Source of the DNA: Longimicrobiales bacterium
Lineage (GTDB): Bacteria > Gemmatimonadota > Gemmatimonadetes > Longimicrobiales > Gaopeijiaceae
Assembly: GCA_965249725.1 (NCBI GenBank)
Contig: OZ252251.1
Location: forward strand, 128,001-192,000
DNA length: 64,000 nt
Direction of reading: 5' to 3'
The notes below the pieces were generated by a model that had not been told where the DNA came from, did no database searches, and saw only the letters and a program-made list of their open reading frames with translations. A program made the translations under genes and the position numbers. This document shows positions 14,786-20,627 of this stretch, one piece after another. Numbering within the stretch: the first letter of the stretch is position 1; each line of letters starts with the position of its first letter.

Positions 14786-16163
14786 ATGACTTCGACACGC
14801 TCAACTCTCACGGGACGCGCGGCACTGATCTTCGCGTTCACCGCGATGCTCCCCGCCGGATCCGCAAGCGCCCAGCAGCCCCTCGGTGCCTCCCCCGTGG
14901 TGGACGACCTCCCGGGCATGGGCCGCGCCGTCGACCTGGTGGAGACACGCGCCCGGAGAGAGGCGCTCGTCGCTCGTACCGGTGCGGGCGTGATCGCCAT
15001 TCCAGCGGGGCGGAGCCGCGACCTCGAGTTGGAGGTGCTGCAGGACAACAACTTCAGGCAGGACGACTACTTCTTCTACCTCACTGGCCTCGAGTCGCCC
15101 GACGCCTGGCTCGTCATGCCCGTTGAGCCGTCGGGTGCCGCCCAGAGCCATCTCTTTCTGCCCGACCGAGATCCGGCCACCGAACAGTGGACCGGCAAGA
15201 AGCTCGGTCCCGGGGATCGGGCCAAGGAACTGGCCGGCGTGCTTCACGTCCACTCCCTGAGTGATCTCGACGCCGAACTGCAGCGGATGCGCCGGGCCAC
15301 GCCGGGGCCGCTCTTCACCACACTCTATGCCGCGAACGCCGAAAACGAGCGGATCGAGGGCTGGGTCGAGTCGGCCGTCGGAATCGATCTGCGCAACGCG
15401 GTGCCGATCCTCGACAGCCTGCGCCTGATCAAAGACGAAGCGGAGCTACGAAGGCTGCGCAGTGCGATCGACATCACGAGCGAGGCGCAGCGCAGGGCCA
15501 TGCAGTCGATCACATCAGGCATGTACGAGTACGAGATCGAAGCTCTGATCGAGCACACGTTCCGGTCGAACGGGGCGGACCGCCTGGGCTTTCCGTCAAT
15601 CATCGGGAGTGGTCCCAACAGCACCACGCTCCACTACGACACCAACCGCCGACAGACCCAGCCCGGTGACCTCGTGGTACTCGACATCGGCGCGGAGTAC
15701 GGGCAGTACTCGGCCGACGTCACCAGAACCGTTCCAGTCGACGGGCGCTACACCGAGCGACAGCGTTCCATCTACGAGCTGGTCCTCGGGGCTCAGCAGG
15801 CGGCCATCGACGCCACACGCCCGGGCGTCACGATCGGTGAACTGTCTGCGCTCGCGCGAGAGTACTATCGATGCCCATAGCGGTGATCTGTGTGGTGGAC
15901 CGTCCTGCAACCGCTATTACATCCACGGCCTGTCTCACTGGCTCGGCATGAGGGTGCACGACGTCGGGGACTACACCGTTCCGCTGGCGGAGGGGATGGT
16001 CTTCACGATCGAGCCGGGGATCTACATCGAGGACGAGCAGATAGGCGTTCGCATCGAGGACGACATTCTCGTGACGGCCACGGGTGCGGAGGTGCTGTCG
16101 GCCGGTGCGCCTCGAGGCGTCGAGGAGATCGAGGCGCTGATGAGCAGGCCGCTGTTGCCTTGA
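14786..16163 (+). pseudogene. Secreted Xaa-Pro aminopeptidase (M24B), frameshifted at ~15866
   Basis: FRQDDYFFYLTG, LHY, DIGAE, ADVTRT, then [20 protein letters not shown] and RIEDD in another frame; extra T in TAC-T-ATC. May be a sequencing error. Confidence 0.85.
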
Positions 16164-16211
16164 ACTCTGCCGGCCGACTGAAAGCCTGACCCCGAGACCG
16201 AGGATGATGCG

Positions 16212-16736
16212 ATGAGTGACCCCAGATACCCCATCGGACCGTTCCAACCAGCGGGGGCCCTGACCCCAGAGGAGAGGACGGCCCATCTGCTGCACATCGA
16301 GGAGGCGCCGGCCAGGCTACGGCTGGCCGTAGAGGGGCTGAACGACGCCCAGCTCGACACGCCCTACCGTGAGGGCGGGTGGACCGTCCGTCAGGTGGTG
16401 CATCACGTGGTGGACAGCCACATCAACGCCTACATGCGTCTGCGCTGGGCCCTCACCGAGGACGGACCCACGGTCAAGCCGTACGACGAGAAGGACTGGG
16501 CCCGACTTCCCGATGCACTATCGGCGCCGGTCGAGGTCTCACTTGACATTCTGGACTCACTGCACGGGCGATGGCTGTTACTGTGGCGGGCGATGGAGGC
16601 CTCGGACTTCTCGAGAACCTGGAAGGGGCCCGACTTCGACCACCTACCCGTGGACGAGCTGCTGAGGCTCTACTCCTGGCACGGACGTCACCACGTGGCG
16701 CACATCACTTCGCTGAGGGAGGGGATGGGTTGGTAG
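16212..16736 (+). CDS. YfiT/BstA-like DinB-family thiol transferase
   Basis: RYPIG, YREGGWTVRQVVHH, WHGRHH. Confidence 0.88.
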   Translation: MSDPRYPIGPFQPAGALTPEERTAHLLHIEEAPARLRLAVEGLNDAQLDTPYREGGWTVRQVVHHVVDSHINAYMRLRWALTEDGPTVKPYDEKDWARLPDALSAPVEVSLDILDSLHGRWLLLWRAMEASDFSRTWKGPDFDHLPVDELLRLYSWHGRHHVAHITSLREGMGW

Positions 16737-16806
16737 GGGGGTCGCTCGTGGGGCTTTCGCGGAACACCGCCTCTTCCTCGATCGACTTGCCCCTTCCTGC
16801 GAGCTG

Positions 16807-18216
16807 CTAGAAGGCCCCTGGAACACGCACCCCATGGGGTCTGGCATACACTTTTCTTGGCAATAGCCGGGGCGGGCTAGGGATGTCCACCAGCGTGTCC
16901 GCGGAAGCAACCTGCTCCCGACCAACGGCAGCCGCATGGTCCTCCAGCAAGGAGGACCGAGTGACGACCGCTACGATCGATTGGTCAAATTGCACCCCCG
17001 CAAACTCGGCTAGCTGTTCTCGCACCATGGGAATCGACAATGCCTTCCGATACGACCGGTCCGAGAGCATCGCGTCGATAGCATCCGAGACCTTGATGAT
17101 GCGCCCACCGATGGGGATTCGATCACCGGAAACGCCGTCGGGGTAGCCTTGGCCATCGACACGCTCGTGATGGTGTCTCACCGCGCCCAAGACCTCCTCT
17201 GGGAACGACGAAAAGGACTCGAGCAATTCAACACCGCGTGCGACGTGTGACTCGATAACAGCCCGTTCGGCTGGGGTGAGAGCCCCTGTCTTCTTCAGGA
17301 TCTCATTGTAGATCAAGTCGATCTTGCCGATGTCGTGAAGTAGTGCAGCCGTCTCAATGAGCTTCACTCGACCGGGAGAAAGCGTCAAATCCTCGGCAAT
17401 GCGCCTGGAGAGATCTGCCACCCTCTGCGAGTGCCCGGATGTATAAGGATCGCGTACCTCAATCGCCTTCACTAATGCCTTGAGAAGATTCGTGTTGGCT
17501 TCCTGCAGTTGGAAAGTGGTCAGGTAACCCCGGCGAATGAACAAGAGCGGCAGGAGGACCAGCAGGAAGCCCGGGACCCCGTAGTCGACATAGAGGAATG
17601 CGATCAAGAGGGACATCGGACTAACGAGCAAATCATACAGGAGATTGGTTCCGGACTTCCCAACCAGCAGTCTCCAAGCCTTCCTAAACGGAATCCCCTG
17701 GCTAACAGCGATCGCGCCCGAGACCGAGCCCTGATTGATCAGCAGAAACGCAAAACCGAAAGCGATCAAGGGTCCGAACTGGAAGGTGAACCCCTCACCC
17801 GCGAGTTCGGGAGCCTGCGGTAGTCCCCCAACCTGACTAAACACAAAGCCAGCAAGAACGGTTGAAAGAGTGAACTGACCAATGTTGAAGACGGTCTTGA
17901 TTGGCTCGGTTCGCCGGATGATCAGTTCACCGAACACGCCCGTGGTCACATGGAGTGCCAGGGCCGGCACCGGCCCAAACAGGAGCACGCATGCCAGGAG
18001 CGGAAGGAAGGTAATTGAAGAACTACCCGAATTCCCCCCGACCTTGATAGTAAGAGAGAGCGACTCCGACAGCAGCCCAAGAGTTATGAGCGCCAGAAGT
18101 CCCAACCACGCTTCCGGTGGAAGCGTGGTAAGAGAACTCCAGTCTGCCAACGGCAGTGCGCACAGGGATAGGACAACCACTACCCCGACGTACACGCGTA
18201 TGGGTCCTGTGTCCAT
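16807..18216 (-). CDS. Multi-TM membrane HD-GYP cyclic-dinucleotide phosphodiesterase
   Basis: About seven N-terminal TM segments; RDPYTSGHS, LLHDIGK, HHERVDGQGYPDG, DAIDAM. Confidence 0.9.
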   Translation of the reverse strand: MDTGPIRVYVGVVVVLSLCALPLADWSSLTTLPPEAWLGLLALITLGLLSESLSLTIKVGGNSGSSSITFLPLLACVLLFGPVPALALHVTTGVFGELIIRRTEPIKTVFNIGQFTLSTVLAGFVFSQVGGLPQAPELAGEGFTFQFGPLIAFGFAFLLINQGSVSGAIAVSQGIPFRKAWRLLVGKSGTNLLYDLLVSPMSLLIAFLYVDYGVPGFLLVLLPLLFIRRGYLTTFQLQEANTNLLKALVKAIEVRDPYTSGHSQRVADLSRRIAEDLTLSPGRVKLIETAALLHDIGKIDLIYNEILKKTGALTPAERAVIESHVARGVELLESFSSFPEEVLGAVRHHHERVDGQGYPDGVSGDRIPIGGRIIKVSDAIDAMLSDRSYRKALSIPMVREQLAEFAGVQFDQSIVAVVTRSSLLEDHAAAVGREQVASADTLVDIPSPPRLLPRKVYARPHGVRVPGAF

Positions 18217-18243
18217 TCACAAGACCCCCCTCGACCATACCGT

Positions 18244-18330
18244 TTACCAACCAGCAATCCCGCTGTTGATCAACGCCATCACCGTACCGAAAAAATCGAA
18301 CAGAGAGTCAAACAAGCCAACGACGAGCAC
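18244..18330 (-). CDS. Unannotated 28-aa hydrophobic peptide MLVVGLFDSLFDFFGTVMALINSGIAGW
   Basis: GTG start preceded by AAAGGAGGTGA (18336-18346); stop 27 nt before the HD-GYP ATG. Confidence 0.65.
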   Translation of the reverse strand: MLVVGLFDSLFDFFGTVMALINSGIAGW

Positions 18331-18464
18331 ATGCGTCACCTCCTTTCAGGGTGGTGTCAGCTTCCTCCGCTCAGGAAGCCGCAGCGCTCCGCTCTTGCCT
18401 CTCCGCTTCGCTCTTGGCCGGTCGAGGGGGTCTCCCTTTTGTGTTGTTCCGCTCCGGGTCCGCT
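18331..18464 (-). promoter_or_regulatory. Structured purine-rich intercistronic leader with five AGCGGA repeats and an anti-RBS segment
   Basis: AGCGGA x5; hairpin GGCTTCCT-GAGCGG-AGGAAGCT; AGACCCCCTCGACC is complementary to the HD-GYP RBS region. Confidence 0.6.
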
Positions 18465-19148
18465 TTAGACTCTGCCTCGGACCCATCGGTCCGTGGCCTG
18501 CAGCGTTCCCAATATTACAGCCTTATCGGCTGTATCTTCGACGGCCGCCGCCCCCGCGAGGGCGGTTACCGACCGTCCATGAATCGCATGTATGGCGACC
18601 AACGCGAACTGCGAGTCGACCGCCTCCACCAACTTTACGCCGTCGACGGATAGTGCCACCTCGCCCTCTCCCAAGAGGGGTGCGATGGCACCTTCGATCG
18701 CTTTCACCGCCGCCGAAGCAGTCGTTTCTAGTCTTGCACGGATCAGGTCAGCTCCGCTGGCCTCACCCTCAAAGCGCTCTCCGCGCCATTCCACCGTCAC
18801 CCGGATTCGCACTCGGTGAGACCGCTCGGTCTCGACCTGGTGGCTGATGAAGAGGATCCGGTCCTCCATGGTCAGCCGCGCCGGATGATCCAATACCTTT
18901 GCTTCGCTAGCCGCGTCCTCGTCCGTCGTCTCCGCCACCGACACCTTGCGGTGGTCGATCTTCATGCCGAAGTGGGCCAACAAGGCCGATTCGACATTCC
19001 GCACCGACTGCTTCGGCGACAGGTCTCCCATAGTGAGGAGATGGATCTCGTCGATCTCCCCTCCGGGACGCGCCACCACGCGTGCCGACACGACTCCCCG
19101 CAGGGAGTTCAGCAGAGCCTCGGCCTCCTCGATACTCCATTCCCTCAT
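18465..19148 (-). CDS. Conserved two-domain hypothetical protein
   Basis: Globular ORF from MREWSIEEAE; N-domain EIHLL...PKQSVRNVES...IDHRKVSVA; C-domain resembles the LeuA regulatory fold by eye. Confidence 0.75.
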   Translation of the reverse strand: MREWSIEEAEALLNSLRGVVSARVVARPGGEIDEIHLLTMGDLSPKQSVRNVESALLAHFGMKIDHRKVSVAETTDEDAASEAKVLDHPARLTMEDRILFISHQVETERSHRVRIRVTVEWRGERFEGEASGADLIRARLETTASAAVKAIEGAIAPLLGEGEVALSVDGVKLVEAVDSQFALVAIHAIHGRSVTALAGAAAVEDTADKAVILGTLQATDRWVRGRV

Positions 19149-19657
19149 GGGTGGAGTAGGGCTCTTCTCCGCGTTCAATTGCGGAGCCGACAGGGGTATG
19201 AACAGCCCCACCGGGTCGTGCCCCCAGACCCGTTCCCAACCGGGTCGACTCGATCTAGATCACCGGCCGAAGCACGGCTTTTCAAATCTATGTTGCTCCC
19301 TCGCATCATTCCCCGATGTTGGCGATCCGTGAGCGACGGCAATTCTGGCCCAACCACGGTGACATCAGTGAGAGGACAAGTCATATGTTTACGAAACTCC
19401 GGCACTATGTGTCCAGACGTCACCGCTTGTCAAGAACAGCATAGGGCGGGCCGTATATCGGCGACAGAGGAAGCGTTTTCTTATCGGTACGGCGGAGTGG
19501 AATAATGGTAAAAAAATGCAACAAGCAAACATCCGTGTCCGGAGACGGGAGGAGCCACCGGAAATCGCCATGCTGGACACACGAGGACGGTCGGTTTATA
19601 CACCAGTCAACCGTCGCAGTTGAGACGGCCCAACCCTCTGGACAGGACCCGGAACTC

Positions 19658-20377
19658 ATGGCGAGACGCGGCGGCCTTGCTGTAACCGTCCTTGCTTTCT
19701 CCTTCTTTCTCGGCGGCTGTGCATCGAGGCAGTCCATCCCCCAAGTTACGAGAGTCACAGAGCTTCCGACGATTACGAAGACCGGCGTGCAACCGGGCGA
19801 CCAAGTCGCTATCACGTTCTACACGGCAGCCGGCAGCGAACTGTCCGAGGTGTCCGGCGAGCGCACGGTCGATGCCAACGGGGAGGTCTTCCTACCGTTC
19901 TTGGGGACCGTGAGCGTCCTCGGGCTCGACTCTCAGACCATTCGCGAGATGCTGGAAGATCGCTACGGAACACTCTACTCTGATCCGGTCGTCGAAGTCT
20001 CGACGAACATCCATGTCAACGTCACGGGAGCCGTCGGTCGACCTGGTCGTTACTTCCTGCCTCCATCCGCGACCTTGGTCGACGCTCTCGCCCTCGCTGG
20101 GGGCTCAGGCTCCGACATCGACGTCGCGGTGCAGGGGGGAGCCGCTGACCCGGCCAACGTACGTCTGGTAAGGGAAGGCGTATCGACAATCATCGATATG
20201 CGGCCCTTGGAGATTCGGCCAGTGGTCCTCGACCTTCGTGTGCAGTCCGGCGACTGGCTCCACATACCCAGAGCCGTCCGGTCCGAGCGGCGTGACGACA
20301 TCAGCTTCTACGGCAGCATCCTGAGCACGCTCCTGACCTTCGTTTCGCTCATCGTCCTCGTCGGGCAGAACAAGTAG
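19658..20377 (+). CDS. Polysaccharide export family lipoprotein (Poly_export + SLBB)
   Basis: Lipobox LGGC, QPGDQV, VDANGEVFLPFLG, VTGAVGRPG, LVDALALAGG. Confidence 0.85.
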   Translation: MARRGGLAVTVLAFSFFLGGCASRQSIPQVTRVTELPTITKTGVQPGDQVAITFYTAAGSELSEVSGERTVDANGEVFLPFLGTVSVLGLDSQTIREMLEDRYGTLYSDPVVEVSTNIHVNVTGAVGRPGRYFLPPSATLVDALALAGGSGSDIDVAVQGGAADPANVRLVREGVSTIIDMRPLEIRPVVLDLRVQSGDWLHIPRAVRSERRDDISFYGSILSTLLTFVSLIVLVGQNK

Positions 20378-20554
20378 CCGATCAATCCACATGCGCCCCG
20401 CGGAGGGCCCCACGGTCCAGGTGGGCGGCTCCGACACCTACGAGGCTCGATGCCGAAAATGTCACGAGGTGCCGCGGCGTCGGTGGCGCCTTGACACCCC
20501 CCTCGAGGCTCTAGAGTTTTTTGGTTCACTCTGCCGCAAGTCGGCATGAGTCAA

Positions 20555-20627
20555 TCCCGCGTAGCTCAGTTGGTAGAGCAGTCGGCTGTTAACCGACTTG
20601 TCGCTGGTTCGAGTCCAGCCGCGGGAG
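20555..20627 (+). tRNA. tRNA-Asn(GTT), CCA not encoded
   Basis: Full cloverleaf: TCCCGCG/CGCGGGA acceptor stem, GTCGG-CTGTTAA-CCGAC anticodon arm, TTCGAGT T-loop; TTGACA at 20491 upstream. Confidence 0.97.

Follow-up and report, generated by a model that had tools for sequence, protein, structure and literature searches.

A candidate nested RNA lock over a small peptide gene and a MASE9-HD-GYP phosphodiesterase gene in Gemmatimonadota

Between the gene for an orphan protein, P0001, and that for a MASE9-HD-GYP membrane phosphodiesterase, the genome of a Longimicrobiales bacterium carries a structured RNA element in which a long-range helix, P1, pairs a C-rich strand with the ribosome-binding site (RBS) of the phosphodiesterase gene and encloses a complete small open reading frame. 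We propose that the element is a nested double lock that is opened in two steps: a factor binding to short repeats would free the start of the peptide gene, and translation of the peptide would then open P1. We put the probability of this reading at roughly 0.55. The evidence comes from the 64,000-nt stretch of contig OZ252251.1 in which the element lies (the window, whose positions are used throughout) and from homologous loci in Gemmatimonadota and Bacillota.

The operon is encoded on the minus strand. A sigma70-like promoter, TTGACA-18-CATAGT (19404..19433, minus), lies upstream of it and is the sole promoter-like site within 16000-20600. In the aligned upstream regions of homologues, TTGAC falls within the consensus at a threshold of at least 70%, as does a promoter-proximal motif, GTAAACATATG (19382..19392, minus; consensus AAACAT.TG). 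This motif has 11 matches in the source genome, of which just the copy at 19382..19392 has TTGAC at most 50 nt upstream; it lies 3′ of the promoter in most Longimicrobiales homologues, and in L003 and L056 it occurs in the reverse orientation ahead of the -35. It is possibly a transcription-factor site (19382-19433). There follow the gene of P0001 (18465..19148, minus; 227 aa), an intergenic region of 250 nt that contains a 28-aa peptide ORF with a GTG start, VLVVGLFDSLFDFFGTVMALINSGIAGW (18244..18330, minus), and the gene of the 469-aa MASE9-HD-GYP protein (16807..18216, minus; Pfam MASE9 E 3.5e-8, HD_5 E 6.3e-31). The HD and GYP motifs of the latter, a predicted phosphodiesterase, are intact in the sequence. 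The RNA element, P0001 and MASE9 each give one match in the source genome, whose completeness is 96%. The window's sole Rfam match is a tRNA gene with a GUU anticodon (Asn) at 20555-20627 on the plus strand. At four other loci (L070, L071, L079, L080) a GGDEF-type diguanylate cyclase gene, recognized by its motif in the translation, runs up to or into the start of the P0001 homologue, which places synthesis and breakdown within a single operon there.

The 5′ arm of P1 is the C-rich anti-RBS strand AGACCCCCTCGACC (18420..18433, minus), and its 3′ arm, GGTCGAGGGGGGTCT (18222..18236, minus), contains the HD-GYP RBS GAGGGGGG (18232-18225, minus), 8 nt before the ATG at 18216. The initial annotation of this DNA had described a 14-bp pairing with one bulged G between 18433-18420 and 18236-18222 that covers a G-rich RBS 8 nt before the HD-GYP ATG, and every one of these coordinates is correct. 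The loop, given there as about 185 nt, measures 183 nt and does enclose the whole peptide ORF, whose stop codon (TAA at 18246-18244) ends 7 nt before the helix, as had been claimed. The energy of the SD:anti-SD duplex for the HD-GYP RBS is -12.2 kcal/mol, with a median of -10.9 across 37 loci.

That annotation had also named RNA folding and covariation in related genomes as checks. Folding of the 271-nt region gives -112 kcal/mol with z = -3.48, and none of 200 shuffled sequences is equally stable. In both the MFE and the centroid structure just the inner 9 bp of P1 form (18428-18420 with 18236-18228). The outer Gs of P1 are taken by a local 10-bp hairpin (18202..18227, minus) that places the HD-GYP AUG in its loop; in either arrangement the start of the HD-GYP gene is closed. 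This hairpin is strong in the source genome, and a similar stretch occurs in L031; among the folds of homologues it is not seen family-wide. The opposite (plus) strand carries a terminator-like hairpin with a T-rich tail at 18423-18441, which is the reverse complement of AAGGGAG-CCCC at the 5′ arm. Pairing of the AAGGAG part with the pyrimidine spacer that precedes the HD-GYP AUG makes P1 longer in many homologues.

Homologous loci were collected in two ways. Of 34 loci obtained via P0001, 21 have the element, some of them cut by contig ends (L032 duplicates L002), five have too little downstream DNA, and eight are weaker matches with different neighbours (L027 is from an unpublished genome). 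A scan of metagenomes with a pattern that includes neither arm yielded 33 loci, all of them adjoining P0001 and/or MASE9/HD-GYP homologues, and both arms of P1 are present in all 31 that are not cut by a contig end. The resulting 46 candidate loci gave 43 complete ones (L013 does not match the pattern of the arm-finding script; L044 and L065 are cut) and, at less than 90% identity, the 37 non-redundant loci to which the counts below refer.

Over these loci, P1 duplexes made from a locus's own arms average -37.5 kcal/mol versus -30.8 kcal/mol for swapped arms, a contrast that none of 20,000 permutations matches and that is made weaker, not stronger, by the wrongly chosen 5′ arm of L046 that the test took in. 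Against the nearest relative, own arms are better than both swaps in just 17 of the 37 loci. In an anchored, ungapped register, which was picked per locus for maximal pairing and is biased in consequence, 192 of 222 cells of the inner columns +1 to +6 are paired versus 157 in shuffled data (0 of 3,000). In a MAFFT alignment of 20 of the 37 loci, selected for their alignability, pairing in P1 amounts to 92.9%, and 6 of its 15 pairs show double changes; whole-structure slid registers give 36-54%. On a tree made without the arms, changes in the 5′ and 3′ arms share 11 parsimony steps versus 6.0 ± 1.4 (maximum 9) for 265 mismatched column pairings; this tree has 33 loci, L008, L010, L046 and L056 being left out for bulges near the anchor. 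RNAalifold reduces P1 to a 6-bp invariant core when run on the MAFFT alignments, since the 3′ arms are misaligned there. Compensatory changes of the kind that the initial annotation had proposed to look for are therefore present across the 37 non-redundant Gemmatimonadota loci, and the conservation and covariation tests together place P1 under selection. We regard it as close to certain that the helix is real and selected. Chance complementarity is ruled out by the z-score of the fold, the arm swaps, the anchored columns, the MAFFT double changes and the shared steps on the tree, and a mobile or repeated element by the single copy that BLAST and the covariance model find in the source genome.

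The element reaches well beyond the close relatives of its host. A covariance model of its 5′ part matches 15 of 151 genomes of the phylum, the source genome included, and the other 14 matches stand in the same context (L073 is cut downstream); in the same 151 genomes MASE9 occurs in 74 and the P0001 family in 116 (the unpublished G116 and G037 are counted). A second test was anchored on MASE9 and covered 27 of the best 30 loci, three being left out: the locus itself, the unpublished L098 and L110 with no upstream DNA. An SD-led short ORF with AGCGRA upstream is found in 27 of the 27, W lies within the last three residues in 23, and the arm duplex has z < -2 in 19; two loci of this set are truncated on the upstream side, and L101 seems atypical. 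In family f4, several loci lack a purine-rich SD before the start picked by the script, and some have a U-tract after the arm. In the same family, a gene predicted from sequence to encode a 200-aa protein with a MerR/excisionase-type HTH and a receiver-like part stands between the P0001 homologue and the RNA (L075:874-1476), and a similar spacing between the two is seen in L074, L076-L078, L081 and L082.

Outside the phylum, two Bacillota records in a plasmid collection, from Natranaerobius thermophilus (L083) and Subdoligranulum variabile (L084), have the same order: P0001 homologue, repeats, hairpin with AGCGGA in its loop, SD, hydrophobic peptide, enclosing helix and HD-GYP gene. The AGCG(A/G)A repeats stand directly behind the P0001 homologue in both, and these two records make up the cross-phylum evidence. 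Their folds are weaker (z -1.8 and -1.7), and P1 ends upstream of the HD-GYP RBS, by 6 nt in L083 and by about 150 nt in L084, so that the anti-SD action is lineage-specific. The enclosing helix is the general feature, and covering the SD is its form in the lineage studied here. In the Natranaerobius record, which is labelled a plasmid, the MASE9-HD-GYP protein is annotated in two frames (L083:4935-6733) and a neighbouring DUF5317 gene in two pieces; DUF5317 was not found in the source genome.

Given the retention of P1 in L083 and L084, where no RBS is covered, one may ask whether the helix is mainly a processing or stability stem of the RNase III-like kind, or terminator-like in some lineages, that frees or ends a small peptide mRNA, with the cover over the HD-GYP RBS a secondary and lineage-specific gain. 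The length of P1 in L005, about 24 bp, and the U-tracts that follow it in L084, L077, L078 and L081 would agree with such a role. On the other hand, in the 37 close loci the 3′ arm is the SD itself and lies 13-22 nt before the AUG, with the median SD energy given above, and the U-tract is absent in the source genome. We consider a processing stem quite unlikely as the main function of P1.

Models of start accessibility bear on what P1 does in the close loci. Opening the interval from -18 to +6 around the HD-GYP AUG is computed to cost 22.2 kcal/mol, the highest value among 27 starts in the window (median 12.0), which are the SD-bearing starts of long ORFs, some of them possibly misassigned. 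The median of the 37 loci is 22.2 kcal/mol for naked RNA and 11.6 with the 5′ arm blocked or removed. The claim of the initial annotation that HD-GYP translation is off by default is thus upheld as a prediction, by a conserved and covarying helix over what the models make the hardest of the 27 starts to open. That P1 represses HD-GYP translation in this lineage seems to us a probable conclusion, held with some confidence.

How the helix would be opened is a different matter. The initial annotation had offered two routes, translation of the peptide, whose terminating ribosome would overlap the helix, and binding of a protein to the loop. For ribosome footprints that end +4, +6, +8, +10, +12 and +14 nt beyond the stop codon of the peptide, the modelled median cost over the 37 loci is 20.5, 19.2, 17.6, 14.9, 11.9 and 8.6 kcal/mol, respectively. 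In the source genome it goes from 22.2 to 20.9 at +10 and to 16.7 at +12, remaining high because the local hairpin additionally covers the AUG. The footprint of a ribosome at termination extends about 5-10 nt beyond the stop codon. Such a ribosome would reach the inner end of P1 and leave the remainder outside its footprint, so the proposed overlap is real in part, and it is insufficient for release, which needs active unwinding or post-termination scanning. The first route stays plausible in the models inasmuch as the costs fall with the footprint, and it is qualified by how little they fall at +4 to +8. The second route fares worse: holding the repeats of the loop single-stranded gives a median HD-GYP start cost of 22.0 versus 22.2 kcal/mol (37 loci), so the models speak against direct opening of the HD-GYP RBS by a protein on the loop. 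The same treatment lowers the cost at the peptide start from 14.5 to 11.0-11.4 kcal/mol, by about 3, and binding to the loop would therefore act first on the peptide.

The inner domain of the element is organized around those repeats, which are its most conserved part. The AGCG(A/G)A repeat tract (18385..18413, minus), likely a binding site, pairs with the peptide start region in the closed fold to form P2. Two more AGCGGA copies lie upstream of P1 (18448..18464, minus), and the locus is the densest AGCG[AG]A cluster of the source genome, with six copies within 100 nt. All 37 loci have 2-5 copies between the C-rich arm and the peptide SD, the spacing between the two main copies varies from 16 to 22 nt, and 46 of 122 copies read AGCGAA. 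The P2 duplex averages -24.1 kcal/mol for a locus's own strands, -22.2 for swapped strands (1 of 20,000 permutations) and -16.8 for shuffled ones, and control windows give the weaker values of -16.6 and -14.9; its repeat strand is nearly invariant, and the partner strand varies, often through G-U pairs. Next to it, the hairpin P3 (18356..18382, minus) presents AGCGGA in its loop and has an invariant base and a conserved bulged A at 18357; in the MAFFT alignment 95.6% of its cells are paired and 5 of its 9 pairs have double changes. The small hairpin P4 (CACC/GGUG; 18336..18356, minus) lies over the peptide Shine-Dalgarno sequence AAAGGAGGTGA (18346-18336).

We propose the following order of events. 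In the closed state, P1 pairs the C-rich arm with the HD-GYP RBS, as covariation shows and folding predicts, and P2 and P4 would bury the start codon and RBS of the peptide gene under the repeats and the small hairpin; with P1 closing the HD-GYP gene and P2 and P4 closing the peptide gene, both genes would be locked. A sequence-specific factor, most likely P0001, would then occupy the repeats and free the peptide start, and the LeuA-type regulatory domain of P0001 would read a small ligand. Finally, ribosomes translating the peptide would melt the inner helices, reach the stop codon 2-20 nt before P1 and unwind it or scan into it, and the phosphodiesterase would be made along with the peptide.

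A simpler arrangement would dispense with a trans-acting factor. Translational coupling could be fixed, setting the ratio of HD-GYP protein to peptide, with initiation taking place in a kinetic window during transcription; the repeats would then be structural, pairing with the start region, or their GC-GRA-GC units pairing mutually via tandem G-A pairs. RNAalifold does pair the first and third repeats through their GC ends, and, at a median of -16.7 kcal/mol, the SD of the peptide gene is very strong. P2 is already present in transcripts ending at codon 10 in three of the four loci folded, and partly in the fourth, which also suits fixed coupling. Such coupling leaves unexplained why AGCGGA also stands upstream of P1 and in the loop of P3, why the repeats are invariant over two phyla and why they are steadily linked to P0001, and we think it unlikely.

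The inner domain could also be read as a riboswitch for a small molecule, for example a cyclic dinucleotide, with P2, P4 and P1 as its expression platform. Conserved unpaired nucleotides (the bulged A, GAC and AGCGRAG) would suit an aptamer, the target is a signalling phosphodiesterase, and a GGDEF gene directly precedes the operon in the four distant loci mentioned above. Searches of Rfam at its gathering score, which include the c-di-GMP-I and c-di-GMP-II riboswitches, give no family match at the locus or in 10 homologues of the element. The element is also found in a single genetic context, and a short word repeated at a spacing of 16-22 nt is less what one expects of a compact aptamer than of a protein that binds at several sites. 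A riboswitch is, in our estimate, very unlikely.

Neither TRAP nor CsrA accounts for the repeats by the tests made. A search for TRAP (PF02081) gives no match in the source genome, at its 96% completeness, and the same search finds it in B. subtilis as a control; this absence speaks against TRAP regulation of the leader. CsrA (PF02599) likewise has no match in the source genome, which, together with the lack of GGA in the 46 of 122 repeats that read AGCGAA, speaks against a CsrA/Rsm target.

The peptide gene most likely starts at GTG 18330 and encodes 28 aa. Over 11 nt its SD is complementary to the 3′ end of the 16S rRNA of the source genome, with an SD:anti-SD energy of -17.6 kcal/mol, and an ORF with a strong SD can be read from the sequence in 37 of 37 loci. 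An out-of-frame AUG 2 nt before the GUG opens a 17-codon ORF that ends well before P1 (18332-18279, minus), and an ATGTG/GTGTG overlap at the peptide start is seen in 6 of 37 loci; this AUG may merely serve P2 pairing, or it may be a decoy start that lowers coupling. The homologous peptides are amphipathic, 19-31 aa long and end in G-x-x-x-W: the last residue is W in 35 of 37, G stands at -5 in 36 of 37, the hydrophobic moment exceeds the shuffle mean in all 37, and the median GRAVY is 1.17. The glycines at positions 10 and -5 use all four codons, from which it follows that the peptide is selected as a protein too. In a clade of 19 loci, codons 3 and 5 are fixed at the nucleotide level, matching the pairing requirement. 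The peptide would probably serve the MASE9 domain as a ligand or as a partner in the membrane.

The terminal tryptophan raises the thought of a tryptophan-sensing leader, with P1 kept open by a ribosome stalled at that codon, or with the RAG repeats, of period 5, as the site of a TRAP-like ring; the GAG-CG-AAG-CG-GAG succession in the repeats resembles the spacing of a TRAP site. The conservation of W at the end of the peptide is its main support. Against it, there is a single Trp codon, at the very end, and it is missing in 2 of the 37 loci and in 4 of the 27 distant ones. Selection acts on G at -5 and on amphipathicity as well, the source genome gives no match for TRAP, and no Trp-related gene lies downstream. 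Tryptophan sensing is thus highly improbable. An amino-acid leader-peptide attenuator is ruled out by the single terminal Trp and by the absence of a sense-strand U-tract terminator after the ORF in the source genome.

A hydrophobic, amphipathic peptide encoded in an mRNA whose 5′ and 3′ parts fold back on each other also recalls type I toxin-antitoxin systems, where a membrane-active peptide is kept silent by the folding of its mRNA, with an antisense RNA in control. The terminator-like site on the opposite strand at 18423-18441 would suit an antisense RNA. No promoter-like site is found on that strand, the element is single-copy, and its position within a signalling operon is fixed in all loci examined. 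We give this explanation very little credence.

The candidate factor of the double lock, P0001, has no match in Pfam or NCBIfam, an HMM search of PDB sequences with its alignment as query returned nothing significant, and its matches in the ESM Atlas are unnamed Gemmatimonadota clusters only. Its closest named relative, from a Longimicrobiales (Gemmatimonadota) genome, is 85% identical. The AlphaFold2 model (pLDDT 89) has two domains. The C-terminal one is like the regulatory domain of LeuA and citramalate synthase (CimA), with a Foldseek match to LeuA at E 7e-7 and a VIA-align match to the LiCMS regulatory domain at Z 9.4, rmsd 3.0 and 109 aligned residues; the modelled likeness to the duplicated beta-beta-beta-alpha fold of the LeuA/CimA allosteric domain is one of fold only. 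The alpha-beta-beta-alpha-beta fold of the N-terminal domain is a common one; this domain matches the CzcD C-terminal domain at Z 9.0 (68 residues aligned, rmsd 2.0) and fits metal-transporter C-terminal domains, BolA and ring-building motifs (EscJ) about equally well. Its topology is similar to that of type II KH domains, though the GXXG loop between two helices is absent from its alignment. The basic or polar residues H36, K46, R50, D65 and R67 are conserved across 117 sequences of the family, and K46, R50, D65 and R67 are retained in both Bacillota homologues.

The repeat cluster occurs in none of nine P0001-family loci that have other neighbours or a cut downstream end. On linkage and surface conservation, P0001 is a candidate binder of the repeats. 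Paralogues of family f3 (L022-L026) stand without the RNA, some of them in tandem or adjoining histidine-kinase-like ORFs, and a stand-alone copy of a LeuA-like domain is also present in many genomes. Viral collections held no relative of P0001, and their nine matches to the element pattern were counted as chance, as they came without matching flanking genes.

A bolder version of the double lock may be entertained, tentatively and with more doubt than belief: that P0001 represents a new RNA-binding family in which a stand-alone LeuA-type metabolite sensor reads the repeats through an RNA-binding N-terminal domain and unlocks the RNA, and that the translated peptide both unlocks the phosphodiesterase and binds its MASE9 domain, the whole forming a cross-phylum module. 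If true, protein-gated RNA switches would gain a new class, one that couples the breakdown of a second messenger to amino-acid status, and MASE9 would have its first named partner or ligand.

Several known systems invite comparison with the double lock. In the MS2 coat-replicase region, ColIb-P9 repY-repZ, R1 tap-repA and hok/mok, translation of an upstream region releases a downstream RBS that a remote strand keeps shut. Those are phage and plasmid systems that use antisense RNAs or coding-region strands, whereas the present element is a nested double lock in a chromosomal second-messenger operon. Staphylococcus aureus RNAIII, with paired ends and a short amphipathic peptide encoded within, is a free trans-acting RNA; our element, by contrast, forms part of an operon, with the RBS of the next gene as its 3′ arm. 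TRAP, HutP, CsrA/RsmA and ANTAR proteins read short repeated words in a structured leader, and their occupancy changes the fold. Amino acids gate HutP and TRAP, and the LeuA-type domain of P0001 might give it gating of the same kind. The word here, AGCG(A/G)A, differs from theirs, and the candidate binder lies outside the Pfam and NCBIfam families.

The element would work like Salmonella mgtQ, described in the available text of its report as an 8-aa intergenic uORF whose translation frees the sequestered RBS of mgtB, a downstream membrane-protein gene, acting via stem-loops that overlap the uORF and via ribosome-destabilising residues (PMC8092293). As far as that text goes, both systems have a small ORF lodged between neighbouring operon genes, a sequestered downstream RBS and coupling, which here is proposed. 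They differ in the 183-nt loop that encloses the whole ORF, in the locking of the ORF start by repeats and in the selection on the amino acids of the peptide. Among our loci, the small ORF has its own RBS, and the target RBS lies in a conserved helix in Longimicrobiales-like loci, not in L083 and L084. The small proteins of C. difficile, in the available portion of their description, are a riboswitch-controlled family with a different arrangement (PMC13724677).

The MASE9-HD-GYP architecture is shared with Thermotoga TM1467 and Streptomyces venezuelae HdgA, to judge from the accessible parts of the sources (10.1101/2021.11.05.467447, PMC6205966, PMC13232838), and in those parts no upstream peptide, RNA structure or partner protein is mentioned for either. 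The MASE9 paper, in the portion available, suggests that binding takes place inside the membrane and does not name a ligand, and the word "peptide" has no occurrence in its main text as available (10.1101/2021.11.05.467447). HdgA is described in the accessible text as poorly expressed and without a phenotype (PMC6205966, PMC13232838).

A literature search whose scope excludes the supplements of comparative RNA-motif surveys and most subscription papers found the element undescribed. It is apparently an undescribed family of structured RNA, widespread in Gemmatimonadota and present in Bacillota, and, as read from the sequences, a candidate for uORF-coupled translational control in a new form, with a candidate new RNA-binding family. 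The closing of both an enclosing helix and the start of the ORF that it encloses would be an unusual design for the translational control of second-messenger turnover, and the element has a clear target and testable mechanics. It supplies candidates on two sides, the peptide as what MASE9 senses and RNA binding as the role of an orphan LeuA-fold protein, and it may offer a reason for the laboratory silence of MASE9-HD-GYP enzymes such as Streptomyces HdgA.
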